From positions 70,047 to 134,046 of the forward strand of contig CAYPFM010000002.1 in NCBI GenBank assembly GCA_964410185.1: 64,000 bases of DNA, given 5' to 3'. Shown piece by piece: positions 12,069 to 57,750 of this stretch (positions within the stretch are counted from its first letter, which is position 1; each line of letters begins with the position of its first letter). This DNA comes from an uncultured Candidatus Saccharibacteria bacterium (GTDB lineage: Bacteria > Patescibacteriota > Saccharimonadia > Saccharimonadales > JAUPVS01). Both the position numbers and the translations under genes were made by a program. The notes beneath the pieces were generated by a model. The model made no database searches, was not told the origin of the DNA, and was given only the letters and a program-made list of their open reading frames with translations.

Positions 12069-13298
12069 GTGCAACATTCAAATACCGAGCCAGCCGCTCG
12101 TAAATCAAAACGACCATCAAAAAAAGCTCGAACCTGGATGAAGCGTCTCAGTTTGGTGTTGATAGCTGGCATCATCTTTATGGTCGGCCTCAATATTGGT
12201 AATGGGCGCATCTCGTTTTCAACCCAAACCGGTGTGCAAAAGAACCTACCGAACAAACTCGATTACACCTCTGTTGACGAGCTGTACAAGGTGCTCAAGG
12301 CCAATTTTGACGGCACGCTTGATCCTAATAAGTTAATCGATGGTGCCAAGCAGGGACTCGTCAAGGCGGCTGGCGACCCACACACCGAATATCTGAACGC
12401 CCAAGAGTATAAGGAATTCAACAACCAGCTGAGCGGTACCTTTAGTGGTATCGGTGCCGAACTCGGCCAGGACGAAAAGGATAATATTATCGTCGTGGCA
12501 CCAATCGCTGGCTTCCCAGCCGAGAAGGCCGGCCTCAAGGCCAAGGACATCATTGTGCAAATTGATGGCACCACAACCACCGGTATGAGCGTCTCAGAGG
12601 CTGTGAACAAGATCCGTGGACCAAAGGGAACGACCGTCACACTCAAGGTGGTGCACGACGGTGAACTTAAAGAAATCAAGATTGTTCGCGACGACATTTC
12701 AATCCCAAGCGTTACCAGTAAGGTAGAAAATGGCATTGGCTACCTCACAATTACTCGGTTTGGTGAAGATACGGCTGAGCTGTCGCGCAAAGCCGCGCAA
12801 AGCTTTAAAGACCAGAACGTTAAGGGCGTCGTGCTCGATATGCGTAACAACCCTGGTGGTTTGCTCGATGCCGCCGTTTCGGTCTCCAGCTTATGGCTGC
12901 CACAAGGCACCACCGTGCTTACCGAGCGCCGCGACAACGTTGTTACCAATACCTACAAAGCAACCGGTGATCCACTGCTCAAGGGCCTACCAACGAGCGT
13001 CTTGATTGATGGCGGAAGCGCCAGTGCCAGCGAAATTACGGCCGGCGCCCTCAAAGACAACGGCGCGGCTACCCTGGTGGGCGAAAAATCCTACGGCAAG
13101 GGCAGTGTGCAGCAAATCGTGAAGCTTAACGACGGCGGTGTGCTCAAAGTCACCATCGCGCGTTGGTATACACCAAAGGGCAAGAACATCGACAAGGCAG
13201 GAATTACGCCGGACACCGTCGTTACGATTAGCGCCCAGGATGTCAAAGCTGGCCAAGATCCGCAAATGGCGGCAGCCGTCAAAGCGCTCGGCTTGTAA
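12069..13298 (+). CDS. S41 family C-terminal processing peptidase with PDZ domain
   Basis: 409 aa. N-terminal TM, PDZ (GFPAEKAGLKAKDIIVQIDG), catalytic region GGSASASEI ... GKGSVQ. GTG start preceded by GAGGGG. Confidence 0.88.
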   Translation: MQHSNTEPAARKSKRPSKKARTWMKRLSLVLIAGIIFMVGLNIGNGRISFSTQTGVQKNLPNKLDYTSVDELYKVLKANFDGTLDPNKLIDGAKQGLVKAAGDPHTEYLNAQEYKEFNNQLSGTFSGIGAELGQDEKDNIIVVAPIAGFPAEKAGLKAKDIIVQIDGTTTTGMSVSEAVNKIRGPKGTTVTLKVVHDGELKEIKIVRDDISIPSVTSKVENGIGYLTITRFGEDTAELSRKAAQSFKDQNVKGVVLDMRNNPGGLLDAAVSVSSLWLPQGTTVLTERRDNVVTNTYKATGDPLLKGLPTSVLIDGGSASASEITAGALKDNGAATLVGEKSYGKGSVQQIVKLNDGGVLKVTIARWYTPKGKNIDKAGITPDTVVTISAQDVKAGQDPQMAAAVKALGL

Positions 13299-13379
13299 TT
13301 ATTACATCTGAAAAAACTTGGCTTCACACCGTAAATGGGTTAGGATATGAGGGATAAAGCGTAAGAGGGGCAATCAGCG

Positions 13380-14984
13380 GTGGCAAAACGACCGACTAAG
13401 TTTATTTTTGTAACAGGTGGCGTGCTTTCCGGACTCGGCAAGGGCATTACCGCCGCCTCCATCGGCAATCTCTTAAAGGCCCGCGGCCTCAACGTTAACC
13501 TCCAAAAATGTGATCCCTACCTCAACGTTGACGCCGGTACCCTCAACCCGCGCGAACATGGCGAGTGTTTCGTTACCAAAGACGGCGCCGAAACCGACCT
13601 CGACCTTGGTCACTACGAACGCTTTCTAGACCAAGAACTAACACAAGCCAGCTCGTTAATGGCTGGTCGCGTCCTCCTAAAGATTATTCAAGATGAACGA
13701 GCCGGCCTGTACGCTGGCGAGGATGTTCAGATTATCCCGCACCTCACCGGCCTGATTGCCGAAACCGTCCAAAAGGCCGGCGAAGGCTTTGATGTGCATA
13801 TCGTCGAAATTGGTGGCACGGTGGGTGACTACGAAAGCCTAAGCTTCATCGAAGCTATCCGCGAACTCGGCCTCAAGGTTGGTCACGAAAATTGTCTCTA
13901 CGTCCACGTCGTCTACATGCCGTACCTCGGTGCCAGCCACGAATTTAAAACCAAGCCTGCTCAGAACTCCGTTCGTGAGTTGCGTGGCCTCGGCATTGCT
14001 CCCGACATTCTGGTTGGCCGCAGCGAAACAGCGCCAAACCCCAGCATTAAAGAAAAACTCAGTCTATTCTGCGGTGTCGACAAGGATTCAATCGCCTTAT
14101 TGCCAAACGCTTCAACCATCTACCAGGTCCCACTGACGCTCGAAGACACTGGTATCGCCGATGTTATCAGCAAGCATCTCGACCTCAAAACCGCCAAGCC
14201 ACACCTCAAAGACTGGCGCCAAGTGGTCGACCGCGCTACCAAGTCACACGCCAAAAAAGTTAAAGTTGGCGTGGTGGCCAAATATCTCGACAACCAAGAC
14301 ACCTACATGTCGGTCTTCGAAGCGCTGCGCGCAGCTGGCTGGTCGCACGACGCTGACGTCGATATTAGCTGGATTGATGCCGAAGAGCTCGAAAAAGCCA
14401 AAGATCCTGCAAGCCTACTCGAAACAGTTGATGGCATCGTGGTGCCCGGTGGTTTTGGAAACCGCGGCTTAGAAGGAAAAATTACGGCGGCCCAGTACTG
14501 CCTCACGAACAAGAAGCCGTATCTCGGGCTCTGTCTGGGCCTGCAAATGGCGGTGATTGGTGCTGCCCGCAATGCTGGCATTAAAGACGCCACAACCGTC
14601 GAGCTGAACCCAGACGGCAAGAATCAAGTCATCAACATCATGGCCGACCAAAAGGGCAAGGAAAATACCGGCGGCAGCATGCGGTTGGGTGACTATCCTT
14701 GTGTCGTCACCAAGGGAAGCATGGCTGCCGAGCTGTACGGCACCAATAAGATTACCGAACGCCACCGTCACCGCTACGAGTGCAACAACGACTACCGTGA
14801 CCAGTACGAAGCCTGGGGCATTAAGCCAGTTGGTCTGTCACCCGACGGCCACTTGGTCGAGATGATTGAAGCCATCGACCATCCATTTATGATGGCCAGT
14901 CAATTCCATCCCGAGTTTAAATCTCGCCCCAATCGACCACACCCAATGTTTGACGGTTTCATCAAGTCACTCTTGCGGAAATAG
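13380..14984 (+). CDS. pyrG: CTP synthase
   Basis: 534 aa. KFIFVTGGVLSGLGKG, glutaminase domain with LGLCLGLQ and HRHRYE. Confidence 0.97.
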   Translation: MAKRPTKFIFVTGGVLSGLGKGITAASIGNLLKARGLNVNLQKCDPYLNVDAGTLNPREHGECFVTKDGAETDLDLGHYERFLDQELTQASSLMAGRVLLKIIQDERAGLYAGEDVQIIPHLTGLIAETVQKAGEGFDVHIVEIGGTVGDYESLSFIEAIRELGLKVGHENCLYVHVVYMPYLGASHEFKTKPAQNSVRELRGLGIAPDILVGRSETAPNPSIKEKLSLFCGVDKDSIALLPNASTIYQVPLTLEDTGIADVISKHLDLKTAKPHLKDWRQVVDRATKSHAKKVKVGVVAKYLDNQDTYMSVFEALRAAGWSHDADVDISWIDAEELEKAKDPASLLETVDGIVVPGGFGNRGLEGKITAAQYCLTNKKPYLGLCLGLQMAVIGAARNAGIKDATTVELNPDGKNQVINIMADQKGKENTGGSMRLGDYPCVVTKGSMAAELYGTNKITERHRHRYECNNDYRDQYEAWGIKPVGLSPDGHLVEMIEAIDHPFMMASQFHPEFKSRPNRPHPMFDGFIKSLLRK

Positions 14985-14999
14985 GCAAATTCTTGTAGC

Positions 15000-15434
15000 A
15001 TGAGCATTATGGACGAACCAACACAAACACCTCCCGCGGCTACTCCCGCACCAACCGCAGCCAGCGCCAAAAAAATCCTTCTGGTTGAGGATGATGACGC
15101 TCTAGCCAGTGTTTACATGACTCGGTTGCAAGCCGAAGGCTTTGACGTCAAGCGCGTTCCCAACGGGGAAGATGCCCTCGCAACCGCGTTGCAGTATCGC
15201 CCTGATCTTATTTTGCTCGATGTTATGATGCCCAAAGTTAGTGGCTTTGATGTCCTTGATATTCTCCGCAACACGCCCGAAACCAACAACATCAAGGTCA
15301 TCATGCTGACAGCGCTCAGCCAAGATAGCGACAAAGAACGCGCCACCCAGCTTGGTGCCGACGACTACCTAGTCAAGTCTCAAGTTGTTATTGCCGATGT
15401 GGTCGACCGCATCCGCCACCACCTCAACGTCTAA
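15000..15434 (+). CDS. stand-alone response-regulator receiver protein (CheY-like)
   Basis: 144 aa. LLVEDDD, LILLDVMMP (phospho-acceptor Asp present), LTAL, LVKSQ. Close paralog of the receiver at 54860..56083. Confidence 0.85.
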   Translation: MSIMDEPTQTPPAATPAPTAASAKKILLVEDDDALASVYMTRLQAEGFDVKRVPNGEDALATALQYRPDLILLDVMMPKVSGFDVLDILRNTPETNNIKVIMLTALSQDSDKERATQLGADDYLVKSQVVIADVVDRIRHHLNV

Positions 15435-19217: not shown

Positions 19218-19226
19218 ATTATAGCA
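19218..19226 (-). promoter_or_regulatory. extended -10 box TGCTATAAT; 9 nt before ATG 19208
   Basis: The minus strand reads gTGCTATAATggaccttcaATG. Confidence 0.55.
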
Positions 19227-22189: not shown

Positions 22190-22249
22190 TGCAACTCGCC
22201 GCGCTACATCTGCAGACCCTCGAGGTCGAAGCCGCAGCGTGAGTTGCAA
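22190..22249 (+). repeat. GC-rich palindromic intergenic repeat, copy c (GACC variant) inside a 60-nt hairpin
   Basis: TTGCAACTC...CATCTGCAGACCCTCGAGGTCGAAGCCGCAGCGTGAG-TTGCAA. The 9-bp outer stem is TTGCAACTC/GAGTTGCAA. Confidence 0.8.
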
Positions 22250-22270
22250 AGCGTTCAGGAATCCTTTAAC

Positions 22271-22945
22271 ATGAGCGGTATGAACAGACTTAATCAGCAG
22301 GGGCGCGTCAATGCGCTGTTGATTCCTCTCGTACTAGTGGTGCTGCTATTTCTGATAGCCGGCAGTTTTGGTATCTGGGCTTTTATGAGCCGCCAGGATT
22401 ACAAAAACAATGTTGATGAAAAAATTAAGACTGCTGTTGTGGTGGCCGATAAGGAAACCGCTACTCGCAAAGACAATGAGTTTGCCGAAAAAGAGAAGTT
22501 ACCGCTACGCACCTACAGTGGTCCGGCCGCTTACGGCAGTGTTGTTTTGCAATATCCCAAGACTTGGAGTGCTTACGTGGGCGAGAAGCCCGGTAACACC
22601 AGCCCGGTTGAAGCTTGGTTCCATCCTGGCTTTGTGCCAGTAGCCCAGGGAACAGACACCAGCTATGCTTTACGCCTACAGGTTACCGGTACGAGTTATG
22701 CCGATGTCATCAAGGGCTATGACAACAGTGTTAAGAGTGGCAAGGCGAAGGCCTCACCATACACGCCGGCTAAGAACCCGTCGATTACTGGCACGCGCTT
22801 CGACGGTGAAATCAGCCCGGGCAAAACCGGTGCCATGGTAATTGTGCCACTGCGTGACAAGACTTTGAAAATCTGGACCGAATCAAGCGACTACGTCAAC
22901 GACTTCAATACGAACATTTTGCCGAACTACAGCTTCGCCCAATAG
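22271..22945 (+). CDS. N-terminally anchored hypothetical (extracytoplasmic) protein
   Basis: ORF 22244 has a TTG start. I prefer ATG 22271, which is preceded by AGGAA. TM segment ALLIPLVLVVLLFLIAGSFGIWAF. No recognisable domain. Confidence 0.5.
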   Translation: MSGMNRLNQQGRVNALLIPLVLVVLLFLIAGSFGIWAFMSRQDYKNNVDEKIKTAVVVADKETATRKDNEFAEKEKLPLRTYSGPAAYGSVVLQYPKTWSAYVGEKPGNTSPVEAWFHPGFVPVAQGTDTSYALRLQVTGTSYADVIKGYDNSVKSGKAKASPYTPAKNPSITGTRFDGEISPGKTGAMVIVPLRDKTLKIWTESSDYVNDFNTNILPNYSFAQ

Positions 22946-22968
22946 GGGTTTTTGGACGTGACTACCTG

Positions 22969-23034
22969 TTGCGGCTTCGGCCTTCTGCGAAGACCTGCAT
23001 CTGCAGACCCTTGAGGTCGAAGCCGCAGTGCGAG
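22969..23034 (+). repeat. GC-rich palindromic intergenic repeat, copy d (GACC variant) with an inverted half-copy
   Basis: TGCGGCTTCGGCC (inverted half) ...CATCTGCAGACCCTTGAGGTCGAAGCCGCAGTGCGAG. 34/37 identical to copy c. Confidence 0.8.
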
Positions 23035-23052
23035 AAATTAGCCATGGTTTAG

Positions 23053-23061
23053 TGCTATAAT
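23053..23061 (+). promoter_or_regulatory. extended -10 box TGCTATAAT; leadered (24 nt, contains AGGAATAAGGA) before ATG 23086
   Basis: agTGCTATAATtggcaggaataaggattgagggatATG. Confidence 0.5.
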
Positions 23062-23085
23062 TGGCAGGAATAAGGATTGAGGGAT

Positions 23086-23796
23086 ATGTCCACGTCGAAT
23101 CGTATTAGTGCGCCGTCAACCGATCGTTTGCTTCAGGCTTTGGCCGAAGAACTCAAACTACCGTTGTTACAGATTGCTCGTCAGGCCGAACTTTCGGCGA
23201 GCGGGCAAGTGGATCAGGCCGCTTTAAAGGGCATAGAGCTGTCGGCTACGCAAGCACTTTGGTTCGTCGATAGTTATTTACTGAGTCAACAATTGTTACA
23301 GCAGTCCAGTCTTGAGCTCGAGCCAGTTGCGGTTTCGGCTGCGTTACAAGAAACAGCGCATGTGCTGGAGGGATTGGCAAAACAGCACAACTGCAGCCTC
23401 GAATTACAGCTTAGCGGCCGCTTCGCGCCGGTGATGGCTCATCGTCTGGGTCTGCAGGCCGCCTTGATTGGCCTGGGCAGTACTTTAATCACCGCCGCTC
23501 AAAACGAGGATAAGCCGCAGCTCATTTTGGCGGCGCATCGCACCCACAATGGCATTGTCGCCGGCATTTTTAGTCAGACCGATGGCTTAAGCCGGGCCGT
23601 TTACGAACGTGGACGTTCGCTCTACGGCAAGGCTCGCCAGCCCTTGCAAGAGTTTGCGCCACAGGCGGGGGCGGGGCTCTTTTTGGCCGACGCCTTGTTC
23701 GGTTCAATGGACAGTCATCTACGCGTTGCCAAGCATAATAAACTAACCGGCCTGGCCGCCACTTTGCAGCCGAGCCGTCAGTTGAGCCTTATCTAA
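23086..23796 (+). CDS. cytoplasmic histidine-kinase-like protein with degenerate H-box (His replaced by Glu) and degenerate ATP-binding boxes
   Basis: LLQALAEELKLPLLQI aligns with the HisKA H-box (F)L.N.SHELRTPL..I, placing Glu at the His position. The C-terminal GAGLFLADALF resembles the G2 box. I see no N-box Asn or DxGxG. Confidence 0.55.
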   Translation: MSTSNRISAPSTDRLLQALAEELKLPLLQIARQAELSASGQVDQAALKGIELSATQALWFVDSYLLSQQLLQQSSLELEPVAVSAALQETAHVLEGLAKQHNCSLELQLSGRFAPVMAHRLGLQAALIGLGSTLITAAQNEDKPQLILAAHRTHNGIVAGIFSQTDGLSRAVYERGRSLYGKARQPLQEFAPQAGAGLFLADALFGSMDSHLRVAKHNKLTGLAATLQPSRQLSLI

Positions 23797-24182
23797 TGGC
23801 GACGATACTGCTTCTCGAACCAGATCGTCGCTTAGCGAGCAGCTATAAGCAGGCGCTGACTCGGGCAGGGCACAACGTCTTCTGGCAAACCGATGCTCAA
23901 AAGGCGCTGGAGGTCATCGACGATCATCAGCCCAGCCTGGTCATCATGGAGCTCCATCTACCCAAGCACAATGGCATTGAGTTTTTGTACGAGGTCCGTT
24001 CCTACCCTGATTGCGATCATATTCCGGTCTTACTGCACACCATGGTGCCAACCGATCACCCGGGGTTAGGGCACAGCTATTGGGACCAACTTGGCATCAA
24101 AGAGTATCTATATAAGCCGCAAACCTCGCTGGCCCAGTTGGTGCAACGCGCCAATAATCTGACCGCTTCGATTCCAGTATGA
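23796..24182 (+). CDS. receiver-like protein with Glu at the phospho-acceptor position
   Basis: 128 aa. LLLEPD, SLVIMELHLP (Glu where the Asp is expected), LLHTM (Thr), YLYKPQ (Lys). TAATG overlap with the upstream gene. Confidence 0.6.
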   Translation: MATILLLEPDRRLASSYKQALTRAGHNVFWQTDAQKALEVIDDHQPSLVIMELHLPKHNGIEFLYEVRSYPDCDHIPVLLHTMVPTDHPGLGHSYWDQLGIKEYLYKPQTSLAQLVQRANNLTASIPV

Positions 24183-24868
24183 ACCAAATTGTTACCCAGG
24201 GAATTGTTTTAACGCGGACCAATTATGGGGAGGCCGACCGCATCATCACCATGCTGACACCCGACCAGGGCAAGGTTCGCGTCATCGCTAAGGGTGTCCG
24301 CAAGATTAAGAGCAAGTTGGCTGGTGGGATCGAGCTGTTCAGCGTCAGCCAGATTACCTATTTACCCGGGAAGAGTGACATCAAAACGCTGGTTTCAGCC
24401 CGGTTGCAGAAGCACTACGGTACTATCGTCCAGAACATCAATCGCACCATGTTGGGCTACGAGTTGCTTAAAAGAATGAATCGCGCCACCGAGGATGCCA
24501 CCGAGCCGGAGTACTTCACCCTGATGCAAACGGCGCTGGCTGGGCTGGACGGACCCGTCCCCGAGAATTTGTTGGAATTGTGGTTCGACGCCCAACTGCT
24601 TAAGCTGGCTGGCTATCTACCGAATCTCACCACTGACGTGCACGACCATCGTCTTAGTGCCGATAACCTCTACACCTTCGACTTCGACAATATGGCGTTT
24701 GCTCAGGCCGACCAAGGGTTGCTCACACCGGCGCACATTAAATTTTTGCGTTTGGTGTTTGGGCTAGACGAACCGGGACCACTCGGCCAGGTAGTCGATG
24801 CTGCCAAGGTGGTGGGGCCATGCGTGCAACTGGTGAGCACCATGCGCCACACCTTTATCCGAGTATAG
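24179..24868 (+). CDS. recO: DNA repair protein RecO
   Basis: 229 aa. GIVLTRTNYGEADRIITMLTPDQGKVRVIAKGVRK OB-fold N-terminus. ATGA overlap with the upstream gene. Confidence 0.85.
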   Translation: MNQIVTQGIVLTRTNYGEADRIITMLTPDQGKVRVIAKGVRKIKSKLAGGIELFSVSQITYLPGKSDIKTLVSARLQKHYGTIVQNINRTMLGYELLKRMNRATEDATEPEYFTLMQTALAGLDGPVPENLLELWFDAQLLKLAGYLPNLTTDVHDHRLSADNLYTFDFDNMAFAQADQGLLTPAHIKFLRLVFGLDEPGPLGQVVDAAKVVGPCVQLVSTMRHTFIRV

Positions 24869-24886
24869 TCGGCTAGTAAATAAAGT

Positions 24887-24894
24887 TGTATAAT
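24887..24894 (+). promoter_or_regulatory. -10 box TGTATAAT; 7 nt before ATG 24902
   Basis: gtTGTATAATaagcttaATG. Confidence 0.5.
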
Positions 24895-24901
24895 AAGCTT
24901 A

Positions 24902-24979
24902 ATGAGTGTAGTTGATTTGTTTCCACTAGAAAATCGCGTCAGCCCGAACTATCAGCCTACCAAGGCCAGTCATGAATAA
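24902..24979 (+). CDS. candidate leaderless 25-aa sORF overlapping the start of the next gene
   Basis: MSVVDLFPLENRVSPNYQPTKASHE*. Its last codons (CAT GAA TAA) overlap ATG 24972 of the downstream ORF. There is no evidence of translation. Confidence 0.2.
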   Translation: MSVVDLFPLENRVSPNYQPTKASHE

Positions 24980-25715
24980 AATAATTGTCAGTGGTAGTAA
25001 TGGCGAACGGGATATGCCATCAGCACCAGAGCCCAAAAGACTGACTAAGCGCCAACGGGGGATGGTGGCTGCTGGTGCCGGCATGGTTATAACGTTTTTA
25101 CTGGGCACGATGGTGCCGCGAGAAGCTCCCCAGCCAACGCCAACACCCGCCACCACGACAACATCAACTGAGTGGCAGCCGGGTGTCAGGACATTCAACG
25201 ACTATCTGGCCGAGCGGGTTGTCAAAGGGCGGCTGCTGGCTCACCGCAAACTGACGTACTTTTTGGGACATGTCGAAATTTCGGTTGGCCAACAACCTCC
25301 CAAAGCTGTCGTTAATCCGATTATCTTAACTGACGCCGATGTATTCTATCCTGGCCGAAGCCAGAAGCCAGGCCAGACAAATTCCCAAAACCCCGGTGAC
25401 TTTGATTTTAAGGTCTATGCGGTTCCGCAGGTAATGAAGGAAGAAGAAAACTGGGGTGATTATGGCGAAGGGCTTGATATCTACACCGATTTTCTTGACG
25501 ACTCTACAGGCTTCCAGACGAGCTTCCGGTTTTTTGATGTTGATGGTCAGCCAGTCGATATGCCAGATGCGCTCTTGCCGCAGTCGGAGTCGCCATTTCT
25601 GCAGCACGTTATTTACGCTGACGACCTCGCGCTTGGCTCAACGCATGATGCCAACGGCACGCACTATGATATTCACGCCGCCGATGGCACTCGGATTTCT
25701 TTCCCCGCAAACTAA
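24972..25715 (+). CDS. N-terminally anchored hypothetical protein
   Basis: 247 aa. TM segment MVAAGAGMVITFLLGTMV, then a PT-rich linker. No recognisable domain. Confidence 0.5.
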   Translation: MNKIIVSGSNGERDMPSAPEPKRLTKRQRGMVAAGAGMVITFLLGTMVPREAPQPTPTPATTTTSTEWQPGVRTFNDYLAERVVKGRLLAHRKLTYFLGHVEISVGQQPPKAVVNPIILTDADVFYPGRSQKPGQTNSQNPGDFDFKVYAVPQVMKEEENWGDYGEGLDIYTDFLDDSTGFQTSFRFFDVDGQPVDMPDALLPQSESPFLQHVIYADDLALGSTHDANGTHYDIHAADGTRISFPAN

Positions 25716-25724
25716 CCAATAAGG

Positions 25725-25730
25725 TATAAT
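25725..25730 (+). promoter_or_regulatory. -10 box TATAAT; 8 nt before ATG 25739 (glyQS)
   Basis: aagGTATAATtatcagcaATG. Confidence 0.55.
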
Positions 25731-25738
25731 TATCAGCA

Positions 25739-27124
25739 ATGAGTAAAACTGAACCCACCCCAGTCTCTTTAGACGACATTGTCAGCCTATGTAAGCGCCG
25801 CGGTTTTGTATTTCCGAGCAGCGATATATACGGCGGTTTTGCTGGTGTCTATGACTTCGGACCCTATGGAGTGGAGCTCGCCAATAACCTTAAGAATGCC
25901 TGGTGGAAGTATATGGTCCAGCGACGTCCCGACATCGTTGGGCTGGACAGTGGTATCTTCATGGCACCGGCCATCTGGAAGGCCAGCGGGCACGTCGATG
26001 GTTTTAGTGACCCATTGGTGGAATGCAAGAACTGCCACAATCGCATCCGTGCCGACCATGTCTTAGAAGAGCTGGGTGAAGTCGCCGATGAAAAAATGAC
26101 CGAAGCCGAACTAAACGACCTATTCGACAAACACAAATCCAACATCAAATGTCCGAGTTGTGGCAAAAAAGACTGGGGCAAGGTCAAGGCCTTCAACCTT
26201 TTGGTCAAGTCCAACCTCGGTAATTTGGGCGAAAACTGGGATGAAGACCCGAGCTACTTGCGCGGTGAAACCTGTCAGGGTATTTACGTGAACTTCCCAA
26301 ATGTTGTCGACAGCACACGCGTGAAGATTCCGTTTGGTATCGCTCAAGTGGGGAAGGCCTTCCGCAACGAAATTAGTCCCCGCCAGTTCATCTTCCGCGG
26401 CCGCGAATTTGAACAGATGGAAATGCAGTATTTCACTGAACCAGAAGCCATGATGGATGAGTACGAAAAGCTGCGTCAGTACCGCTGGGACTTCTATAAA
26501 ACCATCGGTATTAATGAAAAGAATCTTAAATGGCACAAGCACGACAACCTGGTTTTCTATGCTAAAGAAGCCTATGATATCGAGTACAAATTCCCATTTG
26601 GTTTTAAAGAGCTGGAAGGAATCCATGCTCGCGGTGATTACGATTTAACGCAACACCAAAAGGGAAGCGGCAAGGATCTTTCTTACTTTGACCAAGCTAA
26701 CGACAAGCGTTACATCCCGAACATCATCGAAAGTTCGGTTGGTGTTGGCCGCATGTTCCTGGCCGTCGTTACTGACGCCTACACAGTAGACGAAGTGAAT
26801 GGTGAGGCTCGTACTTTCCTCAAGCTTGACCGCTCACTTGCTCCAATCAAGGCGGCCGTCTTCCCGTTGCTCAAGAACAAGCCAGAACTAGTGAAGAAGG
26901 CTAAAGAAGTTTACGCCATGCTATCAGAAGATATGATGGTTGAATTCGATGACAACGGCAACATCGGTAAACGGTATCGCCGCCAGGACGAAATTGGTAC
27001 GCCGGCGTGCGTGGTTGTCGACTTTGATACGCTCGAAGATGACACTGTTACGGTGCGTGATCGGGATACGACCAAGCAGGAACGGGTCAAGATTAGCGAA
27101 CTGGTTAGCAAGCTAAAGGGGTAG
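25739..27124 (+). CDS. glyQS: glycine--tRNA ligase (single-chain class II, GlyQS type)
   Basis: 461 aa. RGFVFPSSDIYGG, GKAFRNEISPR..IFRGREFEQME, C-terminal anticodon-binding domain. Confidence 0.95.
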   Translation: MSKTEPTPVSLDDIVSLCKRRGFVFPSSDIYGGFAGVYDFGPYGVELANNLKNAWWKYMVQRRPDIVGLDSGIFMAPAIWKASGHVDGFSDPLVECKNCHNRIRADHVLEELGEVADEKMTEAELNDLFDKHKSNIKCPSCGKKDWGKVKAFNLLVKSNLGNLGENWDEDPSYLRGETCQGIYVNFPNVVDSTRVKIPFGIAQVGKAFRNEISPRQFIFRGREFEQMEMQYFTEPEAMMDEYEKLRQYRWDFYKTIGINEKNLKWHKHDNLVFYAKEAYDIEYKFPFGFKELEGIHARGDYDLTQHQKGSGKDLSYFDQANDKRYIPNIIESSVGVGRMFLAVVTDAYTVDEVNGEARTFLKLDRSLAPIKAAVFPLLKNKPELVKKAKEVYAMLSEDMMVEFDDNGNIGKRYRRQDEIGTPACVVVDFDTLEDDTVTVRDRDTTKQERVKISELVSKLKG

Positions 27125-54859: not shown

Positions 54860-56083
54860 TTAGAGTGCGATGTCGCCAGGATTGGTACTGTCGCCGCCAG
54901 CAGCAGGTGTGATGACGGTGTTGGTTGCGGGTGTGGCAACCGGCTCATCGGCGTTATCTTTGAGATTTTCTTTCTCGAGCAAGGCGTTCAAGTCAACTGA
55001 TGGCGCCAAGGCGTTTTCGGTTGGCTGTAGTACCAGCTTTTTATGCGACGGCGCTTCGACATTGGCACTGCTACCGCTGGCTTCGGCGGCGGCTTCACCT
55101 GACGGGTTTGAAAGAGCATCTTGAGCAGCTGAGGTTGGTGGCGCGCTGACATCAACGGCTGGCGCGCTGGCGGGGGCTGGTGGTGTTGGTTCGGCTGCAG
55201 GTGGTTCAGCGCCGGCACCAGTTGTGCCACTCAAGACAGGATTGCTGGTGATAAAGTCTTGAATTTGCTTTTCGACGCCGTTGGTTTCTTCGGCTCCGGT
55301 TTTGGTTAAATCATTGTTGATTGGCTCGGTTTCTGCTTGCGGCGCAGCTGGCTGTGTGGTGGCTGGAACTGGCGGGGTTGGCGGAACAACCACGGGCTCA
55401 GCTGGTTCTGGAACGGCTGGGGCTGATGGTGTTGGGGTCTCGAGGGGTGCGGCTGGCGCCGGCGCCGGTGCGGGGGTCGTGGCTGCCGGTGGCTCAGTTG
55501 CTGGCGTTGGCGTTGGTGCTGGTGAAGAAGTGGGCGGTGTCGCGGCAGCGCCTGCAGCAGTGAGGCCGACGGGAGGTTCTACTAAGACCGGCTCTTCTGG
55601 TTTGGCGGCGACTGGTTCGGCTGGTGGAGTTGCAACCGGTGGCGCGGCAACGACTGGCACATCAACGGGTGTAGGGCTTGCCGCCGTGCTGACAGTATCG
55701 GTCGCGGATGCGCTGATGTCACCCAAGACTTCGTGGGCAACCTTAATGACATCTTCCAGGGTGACCTGTGATTTGACGAGGTAACGGTCGGCACCGAGCT
55801 TTTCGGCTCGAGAGCGGTCTTCGGCCTGGCCAAGCGCGGTCATCATGATGACTTTGGTGTTCTTGGTTTCGGGGGTGGCGCGGAGAATATCAAGCATATC
55901 AAAACCGCTAATTTTAGGCATCATAACGTCCGAAATAATGAGGTCTGGGCGCTCCTTGACGGCCAGCGCGAGCGCTTCCTCGCCATCGTGGGCCGAGACA
56001 ATCTCGTATCCCTCGGCAACTAAACGAGCATCGTAGATTTCACGGAGGTTGTTATCATCTTCGACGAGCATTACTTTTGGCAT
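54860..56083 (-). CDS. response-regulator receiver fused to a Pro/Ala/Thr-rich low-complexity tail of about 280 aa (no output domain)
   Basis: 407 aa. VMLVEDD, LIISDVMMP, MTAL, LVKSQ. Beyond that there is only PAPT-rich sequence. Confidence 0.8.
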   Translation of the reverse strand: MPKVMLVEDDNNLREIYDARLVAEGYEIVSAHDGEEALALAVKERPDLIISDVMMPKISGFDMLDILRATPETKNTKVIMMTALGQAEDRSRAEKLGADRYLVKSQVTLEDVIKVAHEVLGDISASATDTVSTAASPTPVDVPVVAAPPVATPPAEPVAAKPEEPVLVEPPVGLTAAGAAATPPTSSPAPTPTPATEPPAATTPAPAPAPAAPLETPTPSAPAVPEPAEPVVVPPTPPVPATTQPAAPQAETEPINNDLTKTGAEETNGVEKQIQDFITSNPVLSGTTGAGAEPPAAEPTPPAPASAPAVDVSAPPTSAAQDALSNPSGEAAAEASGSSANVEAPSHKKLVLQPTENALAPSVDLNALLEKENLKDNADEPVATPATNTVITPAAGGDSTNPGDIAL

Positions 56084-56139
56084 TGATTGATTCCTTGTTT
56101 GCGCGAGTTATAACGCGGTTATGGTTTGTTGCAATTGTA

Positions 56140-57750
56140 TCATGAAGCGTCCTTGGTGGGTAGCGGCGTAAAGGAGATGCTATTGGCTTCGTTCGCCTCT
56201 AGCTCCTTGGCGCGTTTATTGTCGAGGCGCGGTAGATTAATGTAGAAGGTACTGCCCTCACCGACTTTACTTTCGACCCAGATGCGGCCGTTGTAAAGCT
56301 CGATGATCTTGGCGCAAATAAACAAGCCTAAGCCGGTGCCGCCAATGGTGCGGGTGGCCGAGCTGTCAACACGGTAGAACTTTTGGAATAAGTGAGGAAT
56401 ATCAGACTCAGGAATGCCTGGGCCAGTGTCTTTGATTGAAATCTGCACGACATCGTTGTTGCCGGTGAGGCCGATAGAAATAGTGCCTTTCTCGGTGTAT
56501 TTAACGGCGTTATCAAACAGGTTGGTAATGACTTCGCGGATGCGCTCCGGGTCGGCATGAACGTAATAAAGCGGCTTGATAATTTTGGGGCGGCTGGCTG
56601 GTATGTGACTGGCGTTGACAGTCTCTTCGTGGGTACCCATGACATATTCCATGTGCAGGCCCTTCTTTTCGGCCGAGAAGCGTAAATCTTCGACAACCTT
56701 TTCGGTGAACGTGCTCATTTCGATGACGCTGGGGTGGTCGCTCAGGCGGCCATCTTCAGCCTTGGTACTGGTTAGCAAGTCTTGGAAGAGCCGACCAAGG
56801 TGCTGGGTTGATTCGTGGGCTTTCTCGAGGTAGCCCCGCGCCTTGCTGTCGATTGTGCTGACACGGTCGTTCAGGGCCAGAGCTAGGTAGCCTTCGATTG
56901 CGGCCACAGGTGTGCGCATCTCGTGACTGGCGGTACTGACGAAGTCGGCGCTTCGCTTCTCTTCACTGCGTTCCTGACTGACATCACGGAAAATACCGAC
57001 CAGCCCGGTGACATTGTTATTTTTATCAAGCATGGGCGAAATACTAAAGGTTACGGCGACGGGTTTATCGCTGGTGTTAATGAGGACGGCGCCATTATTG
57101 TGAATCGGCGTGCCTTTTGCAAAGGCCTGGGCGAACGGATCTTGCGCTTCGGTATAGGGCACACCCTTCTGGTCGGTGATTTTAAAGACCGACTTGTAAT
57201 CCAGACCATTGGCATCGTTGGCCTTCCAGCCAGTAATCGTGGCGGCGGCCGGGTTAAACAGCCGAATCACGCGCTTCTCGTCGATGAGGACCACGCCGTC
57301 GTCGATGCTATCAATAATCAAGCTGGACTTGAGCTGTTCGAGGTGTAGGAGGGATCCCATCTTGGGGTCGTTACGCAGCTTGGCGTTTAGCTGCCACCAA
57401 TAGATGAAGCCGACGGCGCCGATGACCAACAGCACGAGACTTACCCAAAAATAGGCCGAGGCTAACATGCCGCTATTGGTGGCCGCCATGATGGTCTCGA
57501 ACAGGGCGAATATGTATGAAATCAAAACTGCCAGCCAGGGTTCGGGCTCAAAATACGAACGGCTCACAATCGCTTCGACGGATAGTTGGATTAAGACTAG
57601 TCCAGCCAGCAACGGCGTATAGGCGTGCACGAGCTTACTGCCCGATAGATGAAGAACAGTCACCAAAACAAAGGCCAACACAAAGTGAAGACTATAGGCA
57701 ATCAATGCGCGGCGTACCCAGCGCAAGGTGGAGGTTGGAGTTTGGTTCAT
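56140..57750 (-). CDS. membrane-bound PAS sensor histidine kinase
   Basis: 536 aa, about 4 TM helices, PAS (DGVVLIDEKRVIRLFNPAAATITGW). H-box SHEMRTPVAAIEGYL, N-box NLFDNAVKYT, DTGPGIP, GGTGLGL. Confidence 0.9.
   Translation of the reverse strand: MNQTPTSTLRWVRRALIAYSLHFVLAFVLVTVLHLSGSKLVHAYTPLLAGLVLIQLSVEAIVSRSYFEPEPWLAVLISYIFALFETIMAATNSGMLASAYFWVSLVLLVIGAVGFIYWWQLNAKLRNDPKMGSLLHLEQLKSSLIIDSIDDGVVLIDEKRVIRLFNPAAATITGWKANDANGLDYKSVFKITDQKGVPYTEAQDPFAQAFAKGTPIHNNGAVLINTSDKPVAVTFSISPMLDKNNNVTGLVGIFRDVSQERSEEKRSADFVSTASHEMRTPVAAIEGYLALALNDRVSTIDSKARGYLEKAHESTQHLGRLFQDLLTSTKAEDGRLSDHPSVIEMSTFTEKVVEDLRFSAEKKGLHMEYVMGTHEETVNASHIPASRPKIIKPLYYVHADPERIREVITNLFDNAVKYTEKGTISIGLTGNNDVVQISIKDTGPGIPESDIPHLFQKFYRVDSSATRTIGGTGLGLFICAKIIELYNGRIWVESKVGEGSTFYINLPRLDNKRAKELEANEANSISFTPLPTKDAS

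Follow-up and report, generated by a model that had tools for sequence, protein, structure and literature searches.

A conserved, catalytically degenerate histidine kinase-like and receiver-like pair translationally coupled to recO in Saccharibacteria

In a stretch of 64,000 nucleotides from an uncultured Candidatus Saccharibacteria bacterium (contig CAYPFM010000002.1, positions 70,047 to 134,046; hereafter the window), three overlapping genes encode a histidine kinase-like protein of 236 residues, a receiver-like protein of 128 residues and the recombination mediator RecO (Table 1). A preliminary description of this DNA, made from the sequence alone, had recognised in the first two products a kinase/receiver pair with glutamate at both phospho-acceptor positions. 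Based on the analysis reported here, we consider it probable that the two proteins constitute an ancient, catalytically dead two-component pair, found across Saccharibacteria, which acts as a phosphorylation-independent complex co-expressed with RecO.

The kinase-like protein

An identical 236-residue protein is present in a public collection (P0001), and its nearest named relatives belong to Candidatus Saccharibacteria or Saccharimonadales. The protein is soluble, with no sensor domain, HAMP domain or transmembrane segment, and comprises a DHp-like helical hairpin (residues 9-72) and a degenerate CA (Bergerat) domain (residues 79-236). With the single sequence as query, a Pfam scan gave no match at E <= 10, a phmmer search of the PDB returned chance amidase matches (E about 1) and NCBIfam a weak match to CreC (E = 0.014). 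A profile built from 142 family sequences matched, in the PDB, CpxA (1e-8), the full-length histidine kinase 7z8n over nearly its whole length (4.9e-8) and DivL (3.7e-7). The top match of this profile, 4biz, is a CpxA chain which itself carries Glu at the phospho-His position (ISEELRTPL), and it slightly outscores the CpxA chains that have His there (ISHELRTPL). When the family profile was compared by hhalign with the genuine histidine kinase of the window as a single sequence, the G2 region alone was aligned, with a probability of 0.4%. The AlphaFold2 model (predicted local distance difference test, pLDDT, 84; predicted template modelling score, pTM, 0.80) displays two long helices and, after them, an alpha/beta sandwich, and Foldseek returned full-length matches to HK853, DivL, EnvZ (chimeras) and CusS with E about 1e-10, and a match to RetS too. 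Model, structural matches and the CpxA and 7z8n profile matches agree on the DHp hairpin and Bergerat-fold CA domain of a HisKA-type kinase. The Pfam alignment recommended in the preliminary description as a check succeeded for the receiver, but no HisKA or HATPase_c match was obtained, and the histidine kinase relation came from the family profiles and from structure.

The catalytic residues are missing from this fold. In the H-box-like motif, Glu21 (GAA, 23146-23148) is aligned to His248 of CpxA and occupies the phospho-His position, and the HisKA phosphatase motif E/DxxT/N is mostly absent from the family, in which position +1 is Gln or Glu and position +4 is Leu. In the alignment to 7z8n, both Asn residues of the N-box helix (residues 118-140) are replaced, by Gly129 and Thr133 (LtNLvgNAik in 7z8n versus L-x-x-L-G-x-x-L-I), which removes the Asn that binds Mg-ATP. 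The Asp of the G1 box (DxGxG), responsible for the adenine contact, is aligned to Ser163, and the remnant of G2 reads G195-A-G-L-F-L-A-D, its G195 and G197 aligning to the last two Gly of GGTGLGL. A loop at residues 179-186, LYGxARQP, is conserved in the family. Judging from these alignments, the protein has a histidine kinase-derived fold devoid of the acceptor His, the Mg-ATP ligands and the adenine contact, and autophosphorylation is predicted to be absent. It falls within the definition of a pseudo-histidine kinase given in PMC12632262, which combines histidine kinase homology, loss of the acceptor His or of ATP-binding residues, and purifying selection.

The receiver-like protein

The second protein matched PF00072 with 48.3 bits (cut-off 30.2), and its AlphaFold2 model (pLDDT 91) adopts the standard (beta-alpha)5 fold; the best Foldseek matches were DivK, VicR and RR468, with template modelling (TM) scores of 0.8-0.9 to DivK and RR468. 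Profile match and fold are accordingly those of a receiver, and the conserved Thr/Ser and Lys of the switch are also present, as Thr82 (24039-24041) and Lys107 (24114-24116), in alignments to CpxR and RstA. In the same phmmer alignments the phospho-Asp position is taken by Glu52 (GAG, 23949-23951) and ILLLEPD falls on ILLVDDD, so that in the pocket formed by Glu8-Pro9-Asp10 (23817-23825) the second position of the usual acidic pair (DD) is Pro9. A further key residue is His58. With both the Asp and the second pocket acid missing, the protein corresponds to an aspartate-less pseudo-receiver as defined in PMC12632262. The two other receivers of the window retain the canonical E-D-D...D...T...K set, as the preliminary description had indicated.

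That description had regarded the Asp-to-Glu change as a phosphomimetic substitution. Glu52 is indeed found at the site, but this view accounts for only one of the two changes; because the second pocket acid is also missing (Pro9), the protein is, by its sequence, a pseudo-receiver on two counts rather than a simple D-to-E phosphomimic. According to an idea discussed in PMC12632262, the longer carboxylate of Glu engages the conserved T and K and thereby holds an active-like state, an idea that has been disproved for some pseudo-receivers. The retention of T/S82 and K107 together with an acidic residue 52 fits this proposal. The remaining assignments of the preliminary description at residue level, namely a kinase/receiver pair, Glu at both acceptor positions, loss of the N-box and of DxGxG with a G2-like remnant, and a receiver with its Thr and Lys, were all recovered in the profile, Foldseek, CpxA, 7z8n and CpxR/RstA comparisons described above.

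Conservation and age of the degenerate state

The family of the kinase-like protein is large, with more than 1,400 relatives at E <= 1e-3 in a word-indexed search and 1,094 cluster representatives at the same threshold (262 at E <= 1e-30) in an exhaustive search; roughly 400 members were sampled. A scan of GTDB loci used a peptide pattern requiring Glu at the His position and is unsuited to judging whether Glu is fixed, and the surveys that bear on this question are the exhaustive search of representatives and a metagenome scan anchored on RecO, neither of which carries that residue bias.

Among 269 family proteins the His position is occupied by E in 233 (87%), Q in 13, D in 9, H in 4, L in 2, and N, A, R or Y in one each. 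At the second N-box position of the same sequences the seven commonest residues do not include Asn, and at the G1 position, where S, G, A or T are found, they do not include Asp. Likewise, at E <= 0.01, Pfam recognised HATPase_c in one of 142 representatives (E = 1.6e-3) and HisKA in seven (best 6.3e-5). The most conserved stretch of the protein is the H-box helix (AE[EQ]LKLPLLQIAR), and G160, G222 and Q232 are invariant. Among the neighbouring receivers, all 52 members of one set have E at position 52, and in another set of 121 this position is E in 117 and D in 4. In the latter, E8 is present in 120 of the 121 sequences, P9 in 118 and D10 in 117, T/S82 and K107 are invariant and H58 almost so. 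The RecO-anchored metagenome sample gave a similar result, with E 35, D 5, G 1 and N 1 at the His position (His in none of 42) and E 59, D 9, A 1 and N 1 at the receiver site. Two of the kinase-like proteins that do bear His, P0264 and P0255, adjoin Glu-type receivers and recO. The degenerate state is old and lineage-wide, not a recent lesion, and the conservation counts show both proteins to be under strong purifying selection.

A search seeded with one Asp-type receiver revealed a sister clade in which Asp52 is found in 105 of 121 receivers, with a pocket reading E-[P/S/A/T]-D, Arg58 instead of His and Ser at the T position; K is kept in 118 and T/S in 116 of these 121 sequences. Their kinase-like partners read ALSDDLALPL, which places Asp at the His position, have no N and G1 boxes and are encoded upstream of recO (loci L109, L129, L131, L141 and L143-L145). 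The contigs carrying the Asp-type receivers P0278, P0291 and P0324 end before the H-box of the kinase partner. Across clades, E and D have been swapped several times at the receiver site, and in all receivers sampled from both clades the second pocket acid is replaced by Pro, Ser, Ala or Thr. What stays constant is the presence of an acidic residue at both acceptor sites, together with the loss of the second pocket acid, the loss of the ATP-binding residues and the linkage to recO; Glu itself is not part of this set. The expectation of the preliminary description that orthologs would show fixation of Glu at both sites holds for the lineage-wide degenerate state, but not to the letter, since the His position is E in 87% and the receiver site is E or D according to clade; a recent inactivating mutation, the alternative given there, does not agree with these counts.

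Covariation at the predicted docking surface

Mutual information with average-product correction was computed over 86 non-identical kinase-receiver pairs, giving 30,208 position pairs. The pair formed by R32 of the kinase-like protein and S16 of the receiver ranked second. R32 lies at position His+11 and is equivalent to A271 of HK853, and S16 is equivalent to I17 of RR468, both of which are specificity positions according to the titles of PDB entries 4JAS and 4JA2. As a control, random 6x6 sets of variable positions attained the R32/S16 score in 0.3% of trials. When the Glu-type clade was analysed by itself, R32/S16 ranked 18 and L36/A20 ranked 66. These values are suggestive of covariation at the interface through which the two proteins would dock, and the high conservation of the H-box helix also speaks for this surface.

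Linkage to recO

The third gene was identified as recO by PF11967 (72 bits, 4e-20; cut-off 27), PF02565 (28.7 bits, 1.3e-6; cut-off 22.1) and TIGR00613 (83.2 bits; cut-off 48.7), which together cover the N-terminal OB-fold and the RecO_C region. The stop codon of the kinase-like gene and the ATG of the receiver gene share one base (TAATG, 23794-23798), and the TGA of the receiver gene overlaps the ATG of recO by four bases (ATGA). The trio is present in more than 120 Saccharibacteria loci with 30-100% identity. The order kinase-like gene, receiver gene, recO was found in all 51 GTDB loci that reach into recO, with junctions mostly of -1 or -4, and ATGA is the receiver/recO junction in 45 of these 51 loci. 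In the RecO-anchored metagenomes, a sample unbiased by the state of the pair, the pair was found in every locus with enough upstream DNA. The overlaps reported in the preliminary description are real, and its proposal that operon structure and translational coupling tie the pair to recO applies to every locus with enough sequence. The conserved order extends further, from an LPG-synthase-like membrane protein through xseA, xseB, a methyltransferase, a hypothetical protein and the trio to glycyl-tRNA synthetase.

Transposon insertions in Southlakia epibionticum

Wang et al. 2023 (PMC10633639, Table S1) report a collinear block, SEML1_0242-0249, in Southlakia epibionticum, with transposon sequencing (Tn-seq) calls (ES, GD or NE) at T0/T1/T2 and numbers of insertions in the input and at T0, T1 and T2. 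In this block SEML1_0242 and SEML1_0243 are xseA and xseB, SEML1_0244 is a methyltransferase and SEML1_0245 a hypothetical protein called ES/ES/ES. The kinase-like gene SEML1_0246 is GD/GD/ES, with 8, 3 and 1 insertions from T0 to T2, and the response regulator gene SEML1_0247 (366 nt, 4-nt overlap with SEML1_0246) is NE/GD/ES, with 10 insertions in the input followed by 2, 1 and 0. For recO (SEML1_0248; 675 nt, 4-nt overlap with SEML1_0247) the calls are NE/NE/GD, with 38 insertions in the input followed by 25, 36 and 29, and the gene for glycyl-tRNA synthetase, SEML1_0249, is GD/ES/ES (PMC10633639). Because recO tolerates insertions, the depletion observed in SEML1_0246 and SEML1_0247 is not a polar effect on recO or glyS, and the contrast between a depleted pair and a tolerant recO argues that the main role of the pair is not exerted through RecO.

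Transcription signals and neighbouring genes

The preliminary description had assigned one shared promoter to the three genes. The extended -10-like element TGCTATAAT is present upstream of the kinase-like gene, but a two-hexamer (-35/-10) consensus scan of positions 22200-25800 found no promoter and no terminator. There are 6 copies of the motif TGNTATAAT in the window (extended -10 positions 19218, 23053, 46767, 47208, 53440 and 54186), where shuffling predicts 1.1, an excess which suggests that extended -10 promoters lacking a -35 element are the norm in this genome. An operon promoter at TGCTATAAT is plausible on the basis of the motif and is given as putative in Table 1. Between the upstream gene and this element, in a spacer of 140 nt, lies a hairpin with a folding energy of -36.1 kcal/mol (z = -2.5) and no U-tract, which probably ends or insulates the transcript of the upstream gene; an Rfam search of the operon leader found no RNA element and no match for the hairpin.

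Table 1. Positions in the window of the three genes and of the features discussed in the text
Feature	Position	Strand	Basis
Pseudo-histidine kinase gene (predicted), 236 aa	23086-23796	+	Open reading frame, profile matches, AlphaFold2 model
H-box-like motif QALAEELKLPLLQIAR, residues 17-32	23134-23181	+	CpxA alignments, column counts
Degenerate nucleotide-binding region	23437-23691	+	Residue-level alignment to 7z8n, conservation counts
Single-domain pseudo-receiver gene (predicted), 128 aa	23796-24182	+	PF00072, CpxR/RstA alignments, AlphaFold2 model, ortholog counts
recO, 229 aa	24179-24868	+	PF11967, PF02565, TIGR00613
Receiver/recO junction, ATGA	24179-24182	+	
Extended -10-like promoter element TGCTATAAT (putative)	23053-23061	+	Read from sequence; 25 nt 5' of the kinase-like ATG
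Hairpin, 14-nt arms and 30-nt spacer	22970-23027	+	Repeat search; arms 93% complementary

Directly 5' of the trio, the window encodes a conserved hypothetical protein of 233 residues (22244-22945, forward strand) with no Pfam or PADLOC match; its counterpart SEML1_0245 is essential at all time points, enriched in Patescibacteria and predicted to be PsbP/Mog1p-like (PMC10633639, Tables S1 and S2). Between recO and glyS lies an open reading frame for 247 residues (24972-25715, forward strand), also with no Pfam or PADLOC match, and in other loci this slot holds a reverse-strand gene (L001/L002), an HD-domain gene (L141) or nothing (L143/L144). A genuine two-component system is encoded on the reverse strand at 54860-57750. 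Its kinase (56140-57750; 536 residues) contains PAS, HisKA and HATPase_c domains (HATPase_c 1e-32), and in the neighbouring protein of 407 residues Pfam matched only an N-terminal receiver, with about 300 C-terminal residues beyond it. The counterparts of this system in S. epibionticum, SEML1_0318 and SEML1_0317, are non-essential (PMC10633639). Finally, the region 12069-15434, which encodes an S41 peptidase, CTP synthase and a canonical single-domain receiver (15000-15434), partly mirrors SEML1_0237/SEML1_0238, and indicates long-range collinearity between this genome and that of the cultivated oral Saccharibacterium S. epibionticum. The GC content and skew of the locus are unremarkable, and horizontal acquisition was discarded; a role in anti-phage defence was likewise discarded, PADLOC having returned weak receiver-like noise and nothing more.

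Discussion

In the mechanism that we propose for a phosphorylation-independent complex, no phosphate would be made or passed within the pair. The two proteins would associate stoichiometrically through the canonical docking surface formed by helix 1 of the kinase and helix 1 of the receiver, Glu52, Thr82 and Lys107 would keep the receiver in a single conformation, and the complex could then serve as an adaptor or regulator acting on a third protein. Translational coupling would lead to equal and co-ordinated production with RecO. We may hypothesize, as did the preliminary description, that the pair is in a "constitutively on" state, and the operon likewise leads us to hypothesize a functional link to RecO, which would be a candidate client. 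Nevertheless, due to the Tn-seq pattern, in which the pair is depleted and recO is tolerant, a broader growth-critical role of which co-expression with RecO is one facet seems more probable.

Several observations weigh against this interpretation. Besides E, the former phospho-His site of the kinase-like family admits Q, D, H, L, N, A, R, Y and G, and therefore Glu21 is not essential to the role of the protein, which argues against a catalytic or strictly structural need for this residue. The covariation signal is small, largely tracks one clade split and was obtained from a small sample. Saccharibacterial genomes are highly syntenic, so that gene order is a weak sign of shared function. Some ligand might still be bound, given the LYGxARQP loop and the G2 remnant. 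Finally, in Table S2 of PMC10633639 hmmscan recognises HATPase_c (1.1e-9) and HisKA (5.3e-8) in SEML1_0246 and a receiver (6e-22) in SEML1_0247, scores that make SEML1_0246 more canonical than any of the family members sampled here; a protein search and locus look-ups directed at S. epibionticum and oral-clade orthologs found nothing as canonical. SEML1_0246 may occupy the orthologous position and yet be an active kinase; the Tn-seq results would then not be transferable to the pseudo-pair.

The least unlikely of the alternatives to the phosphorylation-independent complex is that the pair serves RecO specifically, as its regulator or accessory, for instance by docking RecO, or RecO-SSB-RecR, to control the loading of RecA in repair or natural transformation, with the operon as a true functional unit. 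The invariant gene order and the ATGA coupling, kept over 30-100% identity, speak for it, as do the single promoter-like element 5' of the trio, itself preceded by a hairpin, and the presence of xseA and xseB, encoding exonuclease VII, a short way upstream. In Firmicutes, recO often lies in mixed housekeeping operons beside glyS, which counts against a functional reading of the operon, and the pair displays no sequence feature for binding DNA or RecO. Furthermore, in S. epibionticum the syntenic pair becomes essential while recO is called NE/NE/GD, and both RecR and RecF are present (PMC10633639). The Tn-seq contrast indicates that the pair does something for which RecO is not needed, and a role as a substitute for RecR or RecF was discarded because that genome has both.

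Sensing of a ligand or metal, whether by the degenerate CA domain or by the pseudo-receiver, is quite unlikely; a small molecule would then switch the complex, which would not be constitutively on. Family-specific motifs of the former nucleotide pocket are strongly conserved, including LYGxARQP, G195-A-G197 and the invariant G160, G222 and Q232, and an acidic cluster of E8, D10, E/D52 and the E/D21 of the partner has been retained, as have K107 and H/R58; in addition, pseudo-receivers that bind ligands such as cyclic di-GMP or a quinone are documented (PMC12632262). Against this, Pfam and NCBIfam recognised no ligand-binding motif, and the demands of folding or of partner binding could explain the conservation just as well.

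We give little credence to a bolder version of the preferred complex, in which the acidic residue at the phospho-His site (Glu or Asp) would insert into the acidic pocket of the receiver (E8, D10, E/D52), with a divalent cation, or Lys107 and His/Arg58, bridging the contact, and mimic a phosphoryl group, with the pair frozen in a complex resembling the transition state of phosphotransfer. It would then be an essential, lineage-defining adaptor of Saccharibacteria controlling growth on the host, RecO-dependent recombination, or both. If true, it would represent the first whole cognate two-component pair turned into a structural module, possibly a metal-sensitive one.

Signalling by non-canonical phosphorylation, with the kinase-like protein as a Spo0B/ChpT-like phosphotransferase fed by a genuine kinase such as the PAS-HisKA-HATPase_c protein of the window, or with phosphate carried by another residue or donated by acetyl phosphate to the Asp-type sister receivers, is very improbable: it could draw on the DHp and degenerate CA architecture of Spo0B and ChpT, on the four family members with His, on the Asp52 of the sister clade with its S and K, and on the invariant T/S82 and K107 of the Glu-type sets, but the window pair has Glu, no phosphoryl acceptor in this chemistry, at both sites, His is missing from more than 98% of members with diverse replacements, His-bearing members are paired with Glu-type receivers, the second metal-binding acid is lost from every receiver sampled and the phosphatase motif is mostly absent.

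Under the preferred reading of a dead pair acting as a complex, both halves of a cognate pair have lost their activity and are yet kept, tightly co-translated, across a whole bacterial class, and since the genomes of Saccharibacteria are tiny, this retention argues for an important function. The pair would offer a minimal soluble system (236 and 128 residues) for probing the kinase-receiver interface without phosphate transfer, and its natural E/E, D/D, D/E and rare His variants constitute a ready allelic series. Saccharibacteria are genetically tractable and the syntenic genes are fitness-critical in Tn-seq, which makes the question directly testable. If the connection with RecO proved true, it would reveal an unrecognised layer of control over recombination in naturally competent epibionts. 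These aspects should interest specialists in signal transduction as well as those concerned with the biology of Patescibacteria. A literature search on Saccharibacteria, RecO and response regulators, and on pseudo-kinases with pseudo-receivers, found no description of a cognate double-pseudo pair, of this family or of its linkage to recO; pseudo-kinases and Glu-type pseudo-receivers are already known, and the conserved cognate pseudo-pair appears to be undescribed.

Among known systems, HK853-RR468 of Thermotoga maritima provided the best structural matches of both models, and its A271/I17 positions correspond to the strongest a-priori interface covariation found here. In contrast to the window pair, its kinase/phosphatase and receiver are fully active: His260 and Asp53 are present, and the N, G1 and G2 boxes are complete. 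Spo0B and ChpT combine a DHp-like hairpin with a CA-like domain that no longer binds ATP, and dock single-domain receivers, an architecture which is that of the window protein. They differ from it in having kept the acceptor His through which phosphate is relayed; with Glu21 at this position, the window protein has the fold of such a phosphotransferase and not its acceptor.

In Caulobacter crescentus, DivL has a HisKA-type core without the acceptor His and acts by binding the single-domain receiver DivK. Both are among the best structural matches of the window models (DivL as 4q20, DivK as 1m5u and related entries), in line with the DivL profile match. DivL, which binds DivK~P, has Tyr at the His position and PAS sensor domains, and reads the phosphorylation state of a genuine receiver (PMC4211667), whereas the window pair has a receiver predicted to be non-phosphorylatable, no sensor domain and translationally coupled genes. 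PsmA of Streptomyces venezuelae also carries Glu at the H-box His, replaced by D, Q, V or Y in orthologs, a pattern that the window family shares with its E, Q, D and other residues; it has degenerate ATP-binding motifs and no detected autokinase activity, and works by protein-protein interaction (PMC12963549). PsmA is, however, a large hybrid in which PAS domains and a long disordered linker are combined with a C-terminal receiver that has retained its Asp, and it binds DivIVA at hyphal tips (PMC12963549), and the window protein is a minimal core of 236 residues with a separate degenerate receiver.

HisKA domains without His amount to about 0.9%, and Glu is the commonest replacement of the phospho-Asp in receivers, being found among Pfam receivers in plant pseudo-response regulators (PRRs), fungal Rim15p and many bacterial aspartate-less receivers (ALRs) (PMC12632262). 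The same 2025 review calls the activation mechanisms of pseudo-receivers a mystery, and all of the 20 characterised bacterial atypical regulators that it covers are orphans, except CmrT and FrzS. The window receiver differs from the known Glu-type pseudo-receivers in that it has no second pocket acid and no output domain, and is encoded together with a pseudo-enzyme partner.

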